Of a stretch of DNA of 39,995 nucleotides, positions 1,263 to 12,790 are shown one piece after another. The position numbers and the translations under genes are program-made. The DNA is from an uncultured Candidatus Saccharibacteria bacterium (GTDB taxonomy: Bacteria; Patescibacteriota; Andersenbacteria; CAZYLA01). The stretch lies in the NCBI GenBank assembly GCA_964648435.1, contig CAZYLA010000001.1:1-39995 (forward strand). The letters are read 5' to 3'. The first letter of the stretch is position 1. Each line of letters begins with the position of its first letter. A model generated the notes under the pieces. It was not told the DNA's origin. It made no database searches and saw only the letters and a list, made by a program, of their open reading frames with translations.

Positions 1263-1299
1263 ATTTGCCGTTGCCTAAAAAAGGGCTATGATTTGTAAA

Positions 1300-1343
1300 C
1301 CCCCACTTTAATTTTTGCAAAAACGCAAAAATTAAAGTGGGGG
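1300..1343 (+). terminator. Hairpin terminator after the nuclease gene
   Basis: 19-bp perfect stem CCCCCACTTTAATTTTTGC / GCAAAAATTAAAGTGGGGG with a 6-nt loop, 38 nt after the stop codon, followed by a T-rich run. Confidence 0.6.
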
Positions 1344-1466
1344 TGAATTTGTTTTTAGTTCTAGAACCTGCTATTATTAAGCCAGGATTTTTTATTTTAT
1401 TTATAGACAATACAAATGGCAAGATTTAAAGAAGGCGGGAAATAAAAAATAATTTTTTATATTTTA

Positions 1467-1498
1467 TTACGTAATTAGTTACGTAACAAATTACGTAA
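1467..1498. promoter_or_regulatory. Array of three palindromic TTACGTAA octamers in 12-bp phase (operator-like, function unknown)
   Basis: TTACGTAA at 1467-1474, 1479-1486 and 1491-1498. The same motif pair recurs at 2395-2414. Confidence 0.5.
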
Positions 1499-1524
1499 CT
1501 AATTAAAAAAGGGGGATTGAAAGA

Positions 1525-1570
1525 GCGCCCCATCCCCTCCCGCGAGTACTCGCGGGAGGGGATGGGGCGC
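1525..1570. repeat. 46-nt perfect GC-rich palindrome
   Basis: GCGCCCCATCCCCTCCCGCGAGT / ACTCGCGGGAGGGGATGGGGCGC is fully self-complementary. It lies in AT-rich surroundings between the TTACGTAA array and the next start codon. Confidence 0.9.
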
Positions 1571-1637
1571 CGCAGTTCAAAGCTTGCTTAGAATATTAAA
1601 ATGTGATATAATAAAATTAAGATATGAGACCAAAAAA

Positions 1638-1835
1638 ATGAGAAAAGATTTTTCTAAAATTTACGCCCAATATAAAGGGTTGTGGGTAGCCCTTGACAAA
1701 GACGGAAAGAAGGTATTATCTTCAGGAAAAAATGCCAAGATTGTCTTTAAAGAAGCAAAAAACAAAGGGATAAAAACACCCTTTTTACTGAAAGTGCCTC
1801 GAGAAATAATCGGTTATGTAGGTTCCAATATATGA
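1638..1835 (+). CDS. Small DUF5678-like protein (65 aa from ATG 1638; the ORF track starts at TTG 1584)
   Basis: YKGLWVALDKDGKKVLSSGKNAKIVFKEAKNKGIKTPFLLKVPRE fits the remembered DUF5678 pattern (y-G-k-W-V-A ... v-P). Its stop overlaps the next start (ATGA at 1832-1835). Confidence 0.5.
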   Translation: MRKDFSKIYAQYKGLWVALDKDGKKVLSSGKNAKIVFKEAKNKGIKTPFLLKVPREIIGYVGSNI

Positions 1836-2260
1836 AATTTCCTTATGAGAAAGTTACTTTAAAAAAGCTGGTCTTCCCGCAGGGGAAGACCATTTTTCGG
1901 CCGATTTTGCCAATTAAAATTGAGTATCATCAAAGAGAAATTGGCTATTTTACCATGGTTGATTCAGGGGCCGACTTTTGCATTTTTCATGCAATAATAG
2001 GCGAGATTTTAGGTATTCCTGTGAAAAAAGGAATGAAAGCTGAATTTGGAGGAATTACTGGCGGAAAATCACTTGCTTATTTTCATAAGGTCAAAATTTT
2101 CGTGGGCGGCTGGCCTTACGAGACAATGGCCAGTTTCTCTTATAACATACCTCCAAATGGCATTGGTGTCTTGGGCCAATTTGGATTTTTTGATAAATTT
2201 GTTGTAAAATTTGATTTTCAAAAGAAAATTTTTGAACTAAAACCAAAAAATAAGGCGTGA
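1832..2260 (+). CDS. Retropepsin-like (clan AA) aspartic protease
   Basis: Catalytic-type motif MVDSGADFCIF (D-S-G-A). Size of 142 aa fits. Translationally coupled to the upstream small gene. Confidence 0.6.
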   Translation: MKFPYEKVTLKKLVFPQGKTIFRPILPIKIEYHQREIGYFTMVDSGADFCIFHAIIGEILGIPVKKGMKAEFGGITGGKSLAYFHKVKIFVGGWPYETMASFSYNIPPNGIGVLGQFGFFDKFVVKFDFQKKIFELKPKNKA

Positions 2261-2394
2261 AACTTAATTATTTGGTGATTCCGCTTATTTTATTTAAAAA
2301 ATAATAATCTATTTTTTTTATTACATACCTTGCCCTGTTAAATGGCCTGTTTGGGCCAATTTCAGAAAATTCTGAAATTATTTAACAGGGTATG

Positions 2395-2414
2395 TTACGT
2401 AACAAGTTACGTAA
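2395..2414. promoter_or_regulatory. Second TTACGTAA array (two copies, 12-bp phase)
   Basis: TTACGTAA at 2395-2402 and 2407-2414. GTTACGTAACAAGTTACGTAA matches units 2-3 of the first array with one mismatch. Confidence 0.5.
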
Positions 2415-2476: not shown

Positions 2477-4207
2477 CTATTTTTTCTCTTTAATTTCCTT
2501 CTTCGCCCGGCCAATGAAGTATTTTAAGGTTTTTGGGCCAAGGTCGCCTTTTTCTCTCGTGCGGAGGGCGACTTTTTTTTCTTTTTTCTCACGGTCGCCA
2601 ACAACAAGCATATAAGGGATTTTTTCTTTTTCCGCTTTTCTGATTTTGTAATTTACAGATTCTGCTTCTCCGTCGATTTCAACGCGGAGGCCGTTTTCTT
2701 TTAAATCCTCGGCAACTTTGCGGGCGTAGGTAAGATGTTTTTTATCGGAAACAGGAATTATTTTTGCTTGGACCGGCGAGAGCCAGAGAGGCAGAGCGCC
2801 TCCATAATGCTCCAAGAGGACTCCGATAAATCTTTCAAAGCTTCCTAAAATTGTTCGGTGAATCATAATTGGTGTGTGCTTTTTGCCGTCAGCGCCGATA
2901 TATTCAAGTCCAAAGCGCTCGGGAATATTAAAGTCAAGCTGAATCGTGGTGCATTGCCATTCCCGACCCAAACTGTCTTTTATTTTAATATCAATTGAAG
3001 GACCATAGAATTTTGCCTCGCCTCTGTCAAGCCGAAATTCCATTTTTTCTTTTTTAAGCGCTTTTGCAAGAACTTTTTCTGACTTTTTCCAAATTTTTTC
3101 GTCTCCCAAGTACTTATCTTTGTGGGCTTCATCGCGGACGCTTATTGTGACAACATAATCTTTAAACCCAAAAGTGCCAAGAACTTCTTTAGAAAGACGG
3201 ATAACCTCAATAATTTCATCCTCAACTTGATCTTCAGTGCAGTAAATATGAGCATCATCTTGAGTGAAAGCGCGAACCCGGAAAAGTCCGGTCAAGACGC
3301 CAGAAAGCTCATGCCGATGGACAAGCCCAAGCTCCGCAATCCTAAGGGGGAATTCGCGGTAAGAGTGAATCCTTTCTTTATAATAAAGCGCGCCGCCAGA
3401 ACAGTTCATTGGTTTAATTCCAAAATCCTCGTTGTCAATTTTAGTAATATACATATTGTCTTTGTAAAGTTTCCAGTGGCCAGATTGCTCCCAAAGATTT
3501 TTGTTAAGAAGAAGGGGGGTGGAGATTTCCCTGTAGCCCTCCCTTGTGTGAACTTCCCGCCAATACTTTTTGATTTCCTCAAGGATGGCGAGTCCTTTAG
3601 GGTGCCAAAAGGGAAAACCCGGGCCTTCTTCATGGAAAGAGAAGAGACCAAGCTCTTTGCCGATTTTGCGATGGTCGCGCTTTTTTGCCTCAGCCATCAT
3701 TACAAGGTGTTTTTGAAGCGCTTTTTGGCTTTCAAAAGCAGTTCCGTAAATCCGCTGGAGCATCGGATTTCTTTCATTGCCCCGCCAGTAAGCTCCTGCA
3801 AGGTGAGTGAGTTTAAATGCTTTGATTTCGCGCGTATTTTTAATATGCGGGCCCTTGCAGAGGTCAACAAAATCGCCTGTTTCATAAATCGTTGGTTTTT
3901 CTTCAAGTTCTTTTATAAGTTCAAGCTTGTAGGGCTGCTTAGAAAAAAGTTTTAAAGCAGTGCCTTTAGAAATTATTTTCTTTTTAAACACCAAATTTTT
4001 GGCGATTATTTTTGCCATTTTCTTCTCAAGTTCGACGAGGTCAGCCGGCGTCAGAGTTCGGGGCAAGTCAAAATCATAATAAAACCCGTTTTCAATTACG
4101 GGTCCAATTCCAAGCTTAGCATTCGGAAACATTTCCAAAACCGCCATTGCAAGGACGTGGGAAGCGGAGTGGCGGATTTTTTCAAGATTGTTGTTTTGTT
4201 TGGACAT
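2477..4207 (-). CDS. thrS: Threonine--tRNA ligase lacking the N-terminal TGS domain
   Basis: 576 aa. Starts directly in the editing-type domain (HSASHVLA, CKGPH), followed by a class II catalytic core and a C-terminal anticodon-binding domain (YMLVVGDRE). Confidence 0.93.
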   Translation of the reverse strand: MSKQNNNLEKIRHSASHVLAMAVLEMFPNAKLGIGPVIENGFYYDFDLPRTLTPADLVELEKKMAKIIAKNLVFKKKIISKGTALKLFSKQPYKLELIKELEEKPTIYETGDFVDLCKGPHIKNTREIKAFKLTHLAGAYWRGNERNPMLQRIYGTAFESQKALQKHLVMMAEAKKRDHRKIGKELGLFSFHEEGPGFPFWHPKGLAILEEIKKYWREVHTREGYREISTPLLLNKNLWEQSGHWKLYKDNMYITKIDNEDFGIKPMNCSGGALYYKERIHSYREFPLRIAELGLVHRHELSGVLTGLFRVRAFTQDDAHIYCTEDQVEDEIIEVIRLSKEVLGTFGFKDYVVTISVRDEAHKDKYLGDEKIWKKSEKVLAKALKKEKMEFRLDRGEAKFYGPSIDIKIKDSLGREWQCTTIQLDFNIPERFGLEYIGADGKKHTPIMIHRTILGSFERFIGVLLEHYGGALPLWLSPVQAKIIPVSDKKHLTYARKVAEDLKENGLRVEIDGEAESVNYKIRKAEKEKIPYMLVVGDREKKEKKVALRTREKGDLGPKTLKYFIGRAKKEIKEKK

Positions 4208-5514: not shown

Positions 5515-8500
5515 TTATGCAACTATCACTTCTTTGCCAAGCAATTTTTTTATTTCTTTTTTAAAGAGCGGGGTAATTTTAACTTTAAAGGAAGTTTTTA
5601 TTTTTTTCTCTTTTCCGGGTATTTTGAGAAAAACTTCGGCTTTGCCTGGAGAGTTTTTTTCTAAAATTTCTTTAAGTTTAAAGAAAACCTCTTTTTTTAA
5701 AGTTGCAGGCACAGGGATAGTTACTTTTGGGGTTTTCTTTACCTCCGCTTCCAGAGCGACAAGAGACGGCAGTTCTTCAACTTTATCACAGAGAATTTTA
5801 GGGGTGCCGTCTTTGTCGCTAACGCGGCCGGTAATTATCACCTTTTTCTCTTCCTGAAAAATTTCGTATTTTCTTTCTAAAACATTTGGGAAGACGAGTG
5901 CTTCAATGCTGCCGCTTGGGTCTTCAATTTGAACAAAAAGCATGGGTTTGTTGCTTCGCGTAATGATTTTTTTGATCTTATTAATAATTCCAGCAACTGT
6001 AACTATTTGATTGCTTTGAGAGGTGTTGATTTTTATAAGGGGCATTGCTTTATCAGCTAGATATTCTTCATATTCAGAAAGCGGGTGTTCAGTGACATAA
6101 AGTCCGAGAAGCTCTTTTTCCCAAGAAAGTTTTTGTTCTCTTGTTGCCTCGGCTGCACTTTGAAGTTTTAAAGTTGGCCCAGAATCAAGTCCTTTTTCAC
6201 TAAAGAGGTCTTTTTGAGATGCTGACTTTTTCTTGGAAAAGCACTTGTTAAAGGCAAGGATTTCATCCATATTTTCTAAGATGCAGTTTCTTTCCTCGAG
6301 AGAATCAAAAGCGCCGCATTTTGCTAATGACTCAACACTTTTTTTGTTAAGAATCATCATGGGCCTTTGATTTTCTGTTCCCATTACCGCTTCTTTAGTT
6401 TGAATTCTTTCCAAGAAGTTTGCCAGAGATGTGAATGTCCCATTTTTCTTTCTTTCTTCAATAATTGCCCGAGTAACATCGCGGCCGACATTTTTAATCG
6501 CGTTTAAGCCAAAGCGGATTGCCTTACCATCGTCTCTCTCCACAATCGTGAAATTTTCAAAACTTTCATTGACGTCTGGTGGCAATATGGGTATACCTCT
6601 CTTTTCACACTCCGCAACCTCAACGGCAATGCGGTCAATATCATTTTGATCTGAAGTTAAAAGTGCGGCCATGAATTCTTCTTTAAAATTAGCTTTCAGG
6701 TAAGCGGTCTGATAAGCAATCATTGCATAGCAAGTTGCATGCGCCTTGTTAAAGCCATAACTTGCAAAGGGCTCAATAAAAGAAAATACTTTTTCGGCGA
6801 TTTCCTTTCTGATGCCGTTTTTCACTGCGCCGTCAATAAACTTTTCTTTTTGTTCTTCAAGAAGAGAACGGATTTTTTTGCCAACTGCCTTTCTAAGAAT
6901 ATCCGCCTCTCCAAGAGTAAAGCCGGCCAGCTCGCGAGCAATTTGTAAAATCTGTTCTTGATAAACCGCGATCCCATATGTTTTTTCTAGAATCGGTTTT
7001 AATTTTGGGTGAAGATAAGTTGGCTTTTTAAAACCGTGCTTTCCTGCAATGTAATCAGGAATAAGCTTCATTGGCCCGGGTCGATAAAGCGCAATCATCG
7101 CGATAATATCTTCCAGATTAGTCGGCTTAAGTTGTCGAAGGTATCTTCGCATCCCGCTTGACTCAAGCTGAAAAACACCGGTGGTCTGGGCTTTTTGGAG
7201 AAGTTCAAAAGTTTTTTTATCGTTTAAGGGAATATTATTAATGTCAATTTTAATCCCGCGAGTTTTTTCGACAATTTTAATTGTGTTTTCAATGATCGTT
7301 AAGTTTTTTAGGCCAAGAAGGTCTATTTTAAGAAGACCCAGATCTTCTATCGAGTTAAGAGAGTATTGAGTGACGATTGTTTCATCATCTTGGGAAGGGT
7401 GTTGCCGGGGCACATATTTATTAATTTTGTTTTTGGTAATTACTACGCCGCAAGCATGGGTTGAGGCGTGCCGGGCGACACCTTCAAGCTTTCTTGCCAT
7501 ATCGATTAATCTTTTTACCTGTGGGTCTTCTTTGTACGCTTTTGCAAGGTCAGAACTTTCTAGAAGGGCGTTTTCAAGTGACGAGAAAAAAGGTACCATT
7601 TTAGCAACTTTATCGCAGAAAGCATAGGGAAGTCCGAGAGCCCGGCCAGTATCCCGGACTGCCGCTCTGGCAGCCATTGTCCCAAAGGTAATTATTTGAG
7701 CAACGTGGTCATGGCCATATTTTTCGGCAATATATTTAATGACTTCATTGCGCCGGACATCAGTAAAATCAAGGTCAATATCCGGCATGCTAATTCTTTC
7801 AGGGTTTAGAAAGCGTTCAAAAATAAGGCCGTATTTTAGAGGGTCAACATTGGTGATGTTTAAAACATAAGAAACCAAACTGCCCGCAGCAGAGCCTCGG
7901 CCCGGACCAACAACAATTTTATTTTCTTTAGCAAAGTTAACAAAATCCTGGACAATTAAGAAATAGGAGGCAAACCCGGTTTTTTTAATTACTGAAAGTT
8001 CAAGATTAAGACGTTTAATAATTTCAGGCGTGATTTTTTCTTTAGGATAGCGGGCGTTTAAGCCCTTAAAGCAGAGTTTTTTAAGATAGGAATGAGGGGT
8101 TTCTCCTTTTGGCACTTCAAAATGGGGGAGTTCGATTTTACCAAGCTCAATTTCCAAATTACACATCTTGGCAATGCGGACTGTATTTTCAATTGCTTCA
8201 GGGACATCTTTAAAAGCTTGAGTCATTTCTTCTTGCGAACGAAAACTTAAATCCGTACCTTCGTAACTTAAACGATTCTTGTCTTGAAGCGTGTTGCCAG
8301 TCTGGACACACAAGAGAATTTCTTGGGCTTGAGAGTCCTCTTTGTTTAAATAATGAATATCGTTGGTCGCCACCAGAGGGATACCATATTTTTTAGAAAT
8401 TTTTTTAAGACCTTCGTTTACAGTTTTTTGCTCTGGGACATTAGGATGGTGCTGGAGTTCTAGATAAAAATTTCCCTCCCCAAAAAGTTTATTATAAAAA

Positions 8501-12623: not shown

Positions 12624-12790
12624 AGGCATATTTGTTCAAATATAAACTCCTGTTTTATTAATAACTTCCTTTTCGCTAGTGGGGATACGTTCATAGAAAA
12701 TAGAAAATAGTTATATAGAAAATAGAAATTGGTATAGAAATTAGAGAATAGAAAATAGAAAAGCGGAGCGAAGCTCCACTTAAAACCGTC

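Follow-up and report, generated by a model that had tools for sequence, protein, structure and literature searches.

The genome of an uncultured Candidatus Saccharibacteria bacterium (820 kb in total) carries, on contig CAZYLA010000001.1, a pair of overlapping genes encoding a DUF5678 protein and a retropepsin-like aspartic protease, and this pair is bracketed by two arrays of the palindrome TTACGTAA. Here, we describe the block that holds the pair and its arrays (positions 1299-2461 of a 40-kb stretch of DNA, termed ‘the window’ throughout) and weigh the explanations for the arrays. These recur at loci without the cassette, are absent at other loci of the pair, and precede genes of one regulator family; hence, their most likely role is that of sites for a regulator whose gene lies elsewhere. 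Readings that make the arrays exclusive to the cassette, its ends, or its own operators are rejected. The explanation that best joins these observations, and that the sequences compared make likely, is an accessory pair with its own promoter, flanked by arrays that would serve as sites of a regulator encoded at another place in the genome (C68:2946-3122). The pair itself is a real, conserved, translationally coupled accessory module of patchy distribution, and its protease has a retropepsin fold.

Arrays and their candidate reader

The palindrome TTACGTAA starts at positions 1467, 1479, and 1491 (left array) and at positions 2395 and 2407 (right array), in strict 12-bp phase. These five copies are the only ones in the window, where 0.48 would be expected by chance and where none of 100 shuffles yielded five or more. 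An earlier reading of the DNA, made from its letters alone and referred to here as the sequence-only reading, had described arrays in 12-bp phase at 1467-1498 and 2395-2414 and had stated that the right one matches units 2-3 of the left one with one mismatch; both descriptions are accurate, the right array (GTTACGTAACAAGTTACGTAA) differing from those units at a single base. The unit consensus, derived from 16 units genome-wide, adds two bases on each side and forms a 12-bp palindrome, W-R-TTACGTAA-Y-W; because a 12-bp palindrome recurs at a 12-bp period, adjacent units abut directly. Over 21-23 nt, the right array shows 100% identity with those at C68:1904, C6:4066, and C2:19847, and only 95% with the left array. 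Being closer to unlinked arrays than to its neighbour, it gives the left/right likeness no value as a signal of duplication, and target-site duplication was rejected as an account of that likeness. Both window arrays are AT-rich hairpins without T-runs; they are not listed by the terminator scan and do not qualify as intrinsic terminators.

A search of the bacterium's own genome returned 10 array matches per strand, compared with none for a reversed-pattern control. Phased arrays account for 14 of the 19 genomic copies of TTACGTAA and occupy six loci. The sequence-only reading had held that arrays common throughout the genome would speak against the cassette; they do recur, yet at those six loci only, so that they are not ubiquitous. 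Four of the loci lie outside the window, consist of two or three units, and lack both cassette genes (tblastn found no second copy of either protein in the genome):

C2:19847, array with the 3' end of recA on one side and a non-coding gap on the other
C6:4054, array 15 nt ahead of the ATG of an M16 peptidase gene
C8:11054, array overlapping the stop codon of a YibE/F gene
C68:1904, array between a TTGCTT-17-TATAAT promoter and a DUF3800 gene

The gap at the first of these loci (C2:19458-19846) comprises about 390 nt without a convincing open reading frame (ORF), between efp and the TTACGTAA array near the recA 3' end, and holds no Rfam family at gathering score. That array is also the only one flanked in the manner of a bidirectional terminator, with A8 on one side and T9 on the other.

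Beyond this genome, the three-unit pattern (24 fixed bases) matches 99 stretches in the genome collection, mostly in Patescibacteria and in several genomes more than once, and many of these three-unit arrays are perfect 32-bp palindromes. Among 86 arrays with a median distance of 47 nt to the downstream start codon, 32 are situated between tandem genes, 18 between convergent gene ends, and nine between divergent gene starts, a placement that makes a boundary role plausible in addition to that of classic operators. Closer to home, none of the 60 nearest genomes (of the same class or more distant) has even a two-unit array, and the closest ThrS relatives in a metagenome scan reach at most 55% identity. 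Arrays that immediately follow a -10 box stand out at regulator genes and tRNA genes, though the set as a whole has no such enrichment. At two foreign loci (L026 and L093), three-unit TTACGTAA arrays lie between a TAGAGT -10-like box and a gene that by eye resembles a tRNA gene; if these are tRNA genes, the regulator may act also on stable-RNA genes in some Patescibacteria.

The ORFs flanking 80 foreign array loci were clustered to seek recurrent neighbours, and a single recurrent family emerged: a gene of about 58 codons that starts 9-43 nt past the array in seven of the 80 loci and whose product matches MazE_antitoxin/AbrB (PF04014) at 20-34 bits. A profile of this family finds matches with E < 1e-17 in 13 of 22 array-bearing genomes. 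Conversely, 11 of the 19 regulator genes that were fetched have TTACGTAA-type 12-bp arrays at most 110 nt upstream, and the other eight have phased arrays of other types (ATTTAAAT-N4, TTATACAA, CCCTGGG at 11 bp, and AAAAGACTCCTT in six copies).

The genome under study encodes at least seven paralogs of this regulator. One of them, the product of C68:2946-3122, scores 25.1 bits against PF04014 and thereby passes the cut-off of 24.7; it is the best own-genome match to TTACGTAA-linked proteins (48% identity, E = 2.5e-15) and clusters with TTACGTAA-type proteins in a phylogenetic tree (support 85/95). In that tree, 58 residues resolve few forks, and the clustering by TTACGTAA label is modest (an equally low value arose in five of 200 shuffles). 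A motif common to TTACGTAA-linked proteins is RK[LI]TK-G, and its counterpart in proteins linked to ATAT-core arrays is RKIQQ or RKIQH. Each of the six other own-genome paralogs has a different array, phased at 11-12 bp and located just before its own start codon, with CTATAG among the box types:

C23, about 3320-3358: three TTATATAA-N4 units
C4, about 12700-12750: three CCATATGG-N4 units
C20, about 7965-8010: 12-bp array of a CATATG-based palindrome
C28, about 2065-2105: three AAATCTATAATT units in a 12-bp array
C44: three TTCTATAG units in a 12-bp array
C5, minus strand: CTCCGAG at an 11-bp period

From their sequences, these six look like self-regulating mini-regulators with distinct specificities. 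Our literature search found no paper that names TTACGTAA and AbrB together. Near the C68 regulator gene, the Rfam DUF3800-V RNA motif (RF02964, 82.9 bits, E = 2e-18) was found on the minus strand of locus L007 at 2237-2333, which corresponds to about C68:2640-2736 if L007 begins near C68:404. On the strand opposite to theirs, the motif separates the array-headed DUF3800 gene from that of the AbrB-like regulator, and a gene encoding an NYN domain follows.

Gene pair and structured repeats of the block

The features of the block are, in order:

1299-1344, plus strand: intrinsic terminator hairpin (20-bp stem, then a T-rich tail) that ends the SNase/LTD nuclease gene (243-1262); from the terminator scan
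1467-1498, no strand: left array with three TTACGTAA boxes in 12-bp phase; predicted sites of the 58-aa AbrB/MazE-type regulator from C68
1525-1570, no strand: perfect GC-rich palindrome of 46 nt, a member of a genome-wide hairpin family
1584-1612, plus strand: putative promoter of the pair, TTGCTT, 17 nt, TGaTATAAT (extended -10 box); read by eye
1638-1835, plus strand: gene for the 65-aa DUF5678 protein; from Pfam, alignment, and AlphaFold
1832-2260, plus strand: gene for the 142-aa retropepsin-like aspartic protease, its start overlapping the upstream stop (ATGA)
2333-2390, plus strand: dispersed structured repeat in the 3' region of the pair, with the outer stem CCCTGTTAAAT/ATTTAACAGGG around two variable hairpins
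2395-2414, no strand: right array with two TTACGTAA boxes in 12-bp phase, in the gap where the 3' ends of the protease gene and thrS converge
2431-2461, no strand: bidirectional intrinsic terminator (14-bp stem, nine GC pairs, A-run and T-run flanks); from the terminator scan

Only two ORFs are present in the block (1638-1835 and 1832-2260), and they are the coupled pair that the sequence-only reading had proposed from the ATGA overlap at 1832-1835. Its further claims about the layout also withstood scrutiny: terminator-like hairpins with T-runs at 1299-1344 and 2431-2461 delimit the block on both sides, and both the 46-nt palindrome (1525-1570) and the CCCTGTTAAAT inverted repeat (2333-2390) are exact. 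Pfam SNase and LTD both match the ORF upstream of the block, and the terminator at 2431-2461 serves thrS (2477-4207, minus strand) and, probably, the pair. A permissive Rfam scan of 1200-2600 returned only sub-threshold hairpin look-alikes. The candidate promoter at 1584-1612, which lies downstream of both the left array and the GC-rich hairpin, is not listed by a consensus scan because its -35 hexamer matches at only three of six bases; the same TTGCTT-17-TATAAT layout recurs ahead of the C68 DUF3800 gene.

The family assignments of both proteins hold at family level. The 65-aa protein, which the sequence-only reading had called DUF5678-like, passes the Pfam search suggested at the time: DUF5678 (PF18929) matches residues 11-56 with 35.8 bits against a gathering cut-off of 23.2 (E = 7e-9). 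An alignment of homologs backs the ATG at 1638 as the start and gives no support to the TTG at 1584 listed for this ORF. In the AlphaFold model (pLDDT, the predicted local distance difference test score, 85), the protein has an alpha-beta-beta-alpha-beta core followed by a C-terminal tail (P54 ... Y60-V-G62) that is conserved and modelled with low confidence. The model has no significant PDB match by structure, nor does the protein have one by sequence; the predicted structure contains no DNA-binding fold (helix-turn-helix [HTH], ribbon-helix-helix [RHH], and AbrB are all absent), no DNA-binding family matches, and there is no NCBIfam match. Single TACGTA hexamers recur at the DUF5678/protease junction of six other loci (L232, L234, L236, L238, L248, and L012); these would be codons for the Tyr-Val of the conserved tail, so a coding coincidence and not regulator boxes.

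In the 142-aa protein, the sequence D44-S-G-A-D48 is preceded by M-V and thus has the catalytic motif of clan AA (two hydrophobic residues, then D-S/T-G-A); D, S, G, A, and D are invariant across 30 homologs. The protein itself falls below the Pfam cut-offs (PF13650, 14.3 vs 24.3 bits; PF00077, 12.8 vs 20.7 bits), and 24 of 30 close homologs match PF13650 (Asp_protease_2) at E <= 0.01, the best at 6e-11. No solved structure matches the protease by sequence. The AlphaFold model (pLDDT 84, predicted template modelling score [pTM] 0.76) has the retropepsin fold, and a Foldseek search of the PDB gave 36 matches at E <= 0.001, almost all of them retropepsins (e.g. HIV-1 protease, EIAV protease, Rickettsia APRc, XMRV protease, and the RVP domain of Ddi1) plus one pepsin-type enzyme, plasmepsin II. 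The earlier description of a retropepsin-type DSGA protein is therefore upheld by motif, fold, and homologs, and is qualified by the protein's own sub-threshold score for Asp_protease_2. The accompanying proposal of TIGR03698 (the NCBIfam clan AA protease of the AF_0612 family) fell: a hidden Markov model search gave no match to it, and no NCBIfam family matched at E <= 1. The protease is presumably cytosolic and homodimeric. Its family comprises 1379 clusters (50% identity) at E <= 1e-10. Within its gene, at 1869-1892 (codons 13-21), there is a 10-bp GC-rich hairpin with a T-run after it on both strands; it falls in the only stretch of the protein that is variable and indel-prone among homologs and could be an attenuator or due to chance.

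The neighbourhood survey proposed in the sequence-only reading was carried out and shows the pair to be conserved. In all eight further contexts, a gene of about 62-66 codons whose product aligns with DUF5678 is located directly upstream of the protease gene and co-oriented with it; seven of the eight bear a precomputed PF18929 match, and the neighbouring genes differ every time. Across the phylum, PF18929 was found in 32 of 301 genomes (29 of which pass the cut-off), almost always in single copy, and 27 of 30 PF18929 loci have a protease-family ORF directly downstream on the same strand. None of 37 other pair loci carries TACGTA arrays or any array phased at 11-13 bp, and none of 16 array-bearing genomes tested encodes DUF5678 above the Pfam cut-off. 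The module is more AT-rich than its surroundings, with a GC content at third codon positions (GC3) of 32-33% compared with 42-43% in the flanking genes, and no recombinase is encoded in the block. In line with the sequence-only reading, which knew of no established function for such pairs, our literature search found none for the pair and nothing on that of DUF5678.

The palindrome at 1525-1570 is formed by two 23-bp arms and is 78% GC. Against its AT-rich background, this genome has about 21 such long, perfect, GC-rich hairpins (34-50 nt), this one included. Several of these (C6:10351, C12:458, C14:6023, and C69:2241) have the core CCGC(A/G)GTAC(T/C)GCGG in common; a further site is C2:7147. 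Several GC palindromes directly adjoin regulator box arrays; at C12, an operator of the C20 type stands directly before a GC hairpin, the same composite layout as in the window. Since the palindrome lacks a T-run, it is likely to serve as a transcript boundary or in transcript stability, with no special tie to the cassette.

In the predicted fold of 2333-2390 (-40.3 kcal/mol, z = -7.8), the inverted repeat supplies the outer stem of a three-way junction. Five copies of this element are found in the genome (window 2333-2390; C49:1156-1221; C15:5303-5358; C30:4519-4575; C9:7193-7246), with a conserved outer stem (CCTGTTAAAT/ATTTAACAGG) and inner hairpins that vary with compensatory changes. The C49 copy follows a TGtgaTATAAT promoter and forms part of the leader of a corA-like gene; relative to genes, both orientations of the element are seen, the copies other than that of C49 being antisense to neighbouring genes. 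A pattern search of 41 other genomes of the class found no copy and Rfam gave no match; the element is lineage-specific and resembles the repetitive extragenic palindromic (REP) class.

Role of the arrays at this locus

Two roles had been offered for the arrays in the sequence-only reading, namely operators of an autoregulated toxin-antitoxin-like module and the ends (att sites or terminal inverted repeats) of a small mobile cassette. That the arrays are most likely operators still stands; the cassette's own autoregulation does not. In favour of DUF5678 itself binding the TTACGTAA arrays on its flanks, the operon resembles the layouts of type II systems: its first gene is small and overlaps the next at stop and start, and palindromic arrays are close by. 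This reading is nevertheless largely refuted, and extremely unlikely in our estimate, given four array loci that have no DUF5678 copy, 37 other pair loci without arrays, 16 array-bearing genomes without DUF5678 above the cut-off, and a DUF5678 model that contains none of the HTH, RHH, and AbrB folds and matches nothing in the PDB. As to mobility, the arrays could be terminal repeats or att sites, or the cassette could have inserted into a prior array and duplicated part of it. The patchiness of the pair, its different neighbours in every context, its AT-richness relative to the flanks, and two arrays that bracket about 930 bp (expected in about 4% of random placements) would all suit such an origin. 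We consider it very improbable since the right array equals the unlinked arrays on C68, C6, and C2 and is less like the left one, the block has no recombinase, and homologous cassettes elsewhere (0/37) are never flanked by arrays; the earlier att/terminal-repeat inference is abandoned on the first two of these grounds.

It is also conceivable that no protein is involved and that adjacent units of the arrays pair into RNA or DNA hairpins, which would work as weak terminators or as stability elements. Indeed, hairpins of 10-15 bp form between neighbouring units, many of the arrays read as perfect palindromes of 32 bp, the C2 array has its A8 and T9 flanks, and convergent gene ends surround 18 of the 86 arrays. 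The window arrays, however, have no T-run and each stands beside a much stronger GC hairpin that could do the same work; moreover, hairpin formation would leave unexplained the strict conservation of TTACGTAA across phyla, the placement of arrays ahead of one regulator family, and the paralog-specific boxes at the same 12-bp period, and we judge it improbable. A more serious contender, possible though in our view doubtful, accepts the arrays as regulator sites and takes their position on both sides of the pair as a coincidence, the arrays serving the ends of the nuclease gene and thrS and not controlling the pair. Arrays are common at gene ends and beside terminators, both here and in other genomes; the array and the large hairpin both precede the candidate promoter of the pair; and other pair loci manage without arrays. 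On the other hand, the genome has only six arrays, two of them enclose one 0.9-kb accessory module, and another heads the DUF3800 gene in an accessory-looking neighbourhood with an NYN-domain gene, which hints that accessory genes are preferred.

Several observations weigh against an accessory pair flanked by sites of the C68 regulator. The presence of two of six arrays around one 0.9-kb module is suggestive, the chance of two falling within 1 kb under random placement being about 4%, and could still be a coincidence. There is no overlap between the left array and the sequence that best fits a promoter of the pair. Likewise, strong -10-like boxes stand beside 10 of 80 arrays, a frequency equal to that at control offsets, and the TATATT boxes that adjoin both window arrays are accordingly given no weight. 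Upstream of the C68 regulator gene there is just one TTACGTAA box, at about 100 nt; the three-unit array on C68 lies 1 kb from the regulator gene, likewise upstream, at the head of the DUF3800 gene. Nine of the 22 array-bearing genomes (e.g. Collimonas, Mycolicibacterium, and two Chloroflexota) have no strong match to the regulator, so that some arrays elsewhere may be plain tandem repeats or sites of another protein. As to the role of the pair, the arguments for a guarded protease are gene order, overlap, and a conserved disordered tail, and the DUF5678 partners match no PADLOC model.

With these points in mind, the regulator-site explanation can be put in mechanistic terms. The module, with its own promoter, would be set between the terminators of the nuclease gene and thrS. 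A dimer of the 58-residue AbrB/MazE-fold regulator would most likely be bound to each 12-bp unit; in this genome the C68 protein is the predicted binder of the window arrays, with further sites before the DUF3800 gene, before the M16 peptidase gene, after the YibE/F gene, and after recA. Binding at both flanks might repress or insulate the module. The left array would act from upstream of the module's promoter and hairpin, and the right array, at a convergent end, could act only as a roadblock or through antisense transcription. Within the pair, our best guess by analogy is a guarded protease, DUF5678 restraining the enzyme in a toxin-antitoxin-like manner, perhaps via its conserved C-terminal tail. 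A bolder version, to which we assign a rather low probability, is that an AbrB-type protein on both flanks brackets a potentially toxic protease module and supplies the DNA binding that DUF5678 lacks: the left array would stop transcription that reads through or starts from a promoter upstream, the right one would provide a roadblock or antisense control, and arrays in general would mark and insulate accessory genes (DUF3800 and the pair) in ultra-small genomes.

To our knowledge, Patescibacteria have very few recognisable transcription factors, and we know of almost nothing on how their genes are controlled. Were each member of this family of 58-residue AbrB-fold proteins to have a sharply defined array of its own, in 12-bp phase, sequence alone would suffice to read the regulatory code. 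The two arrays in the window surround an accessory module, away from the regulator gene and in one case at a convergent end, and so bear on the choice between operators and boundary elements. With about 1400 clusters at 50% identity, the DUF5678/retropepsin pair constitutes a large family, and we found no paper that describes it; if its protease is a guarded toxin, it would represent an effector class that we did not find described for toxin-antitoxin or defence systems.

Comparison with known systems

Type II toxin-antitoxin systems (e.g. MazEF, Phd-Doc, and VapBC) resemble the pair in having a small upstream gene that overlaps the gene of a downstream enzyme, in a patchy, usually single-copy, context-independent distribution, and in the conserved flexible C-terminal tail of the partner. 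They differ from it in that the DUF5678 partner has no recognisable DNA-binding domain and therefore does not correspond to an autoregulating antitoxin. The literature that we searched yielded no aspartic-protease toxin and no retropepsin-like antitoxin partner. Among defence models, PADLOC PDC-M52B is matched by 25 of 30 protease homologs (best E = 9e-9) and by the window protease over its full length (E = 5.7e-4), and PDC-M08B is matched by 18 of 30; PDC-M52 and PDC-M08 are predicted candidate defence systems. Since the DUF5678 partners are without a PADLOC match, the pair falls outside the two-gene definition of these PDC systems.

The protease is comparable to Rickettsia conorii APRc (PDB 5c9b, 5c9d, and 5c9f) and to PF13650 proteins in having a single lobe of the retropepsin type and the D-S/T-G-A motif. 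The template modelling (TM) scores of the model are 0.58/0.62 against APRc and up to 0.68, relative to the target, against HIV-1 protease. APRc is described as membrane-embedded, whereas no N-terminal hydrophobic stretch was noticed in the 142-aa sequence by reading alone, no signal-peptide or membrane prediction having been run; a second difference is that the gene of the 142-aa protease directly follows that of its DUF5678 partner.

The predicted array reader shares with AbrB/MazE/SpoVT proteins (such as the N-domain of Bacillus AbrB and Escherichia coli MazE on the mazEF operator) the PF04014 match, small size, and presumed dimeric state. It appears to be autoregulatory, judging by the arrays ahead of its own gene in other genomes. 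In contrast to AbrB and MazE, it consists of the domain only (58 aa), without the C-terminal part for oligomerisation or toxin binding, and no toxin gene adjoins it. AbrB sites are loosely defined, whereas the boxes of the predicted reader are sharply defined 8-bp palindromes at a strict 12-bp period. The family also differs from AbrB/MazE in having many paralogs per genome, each with its own box, and in having predicted sites at convergent gene ends as well.

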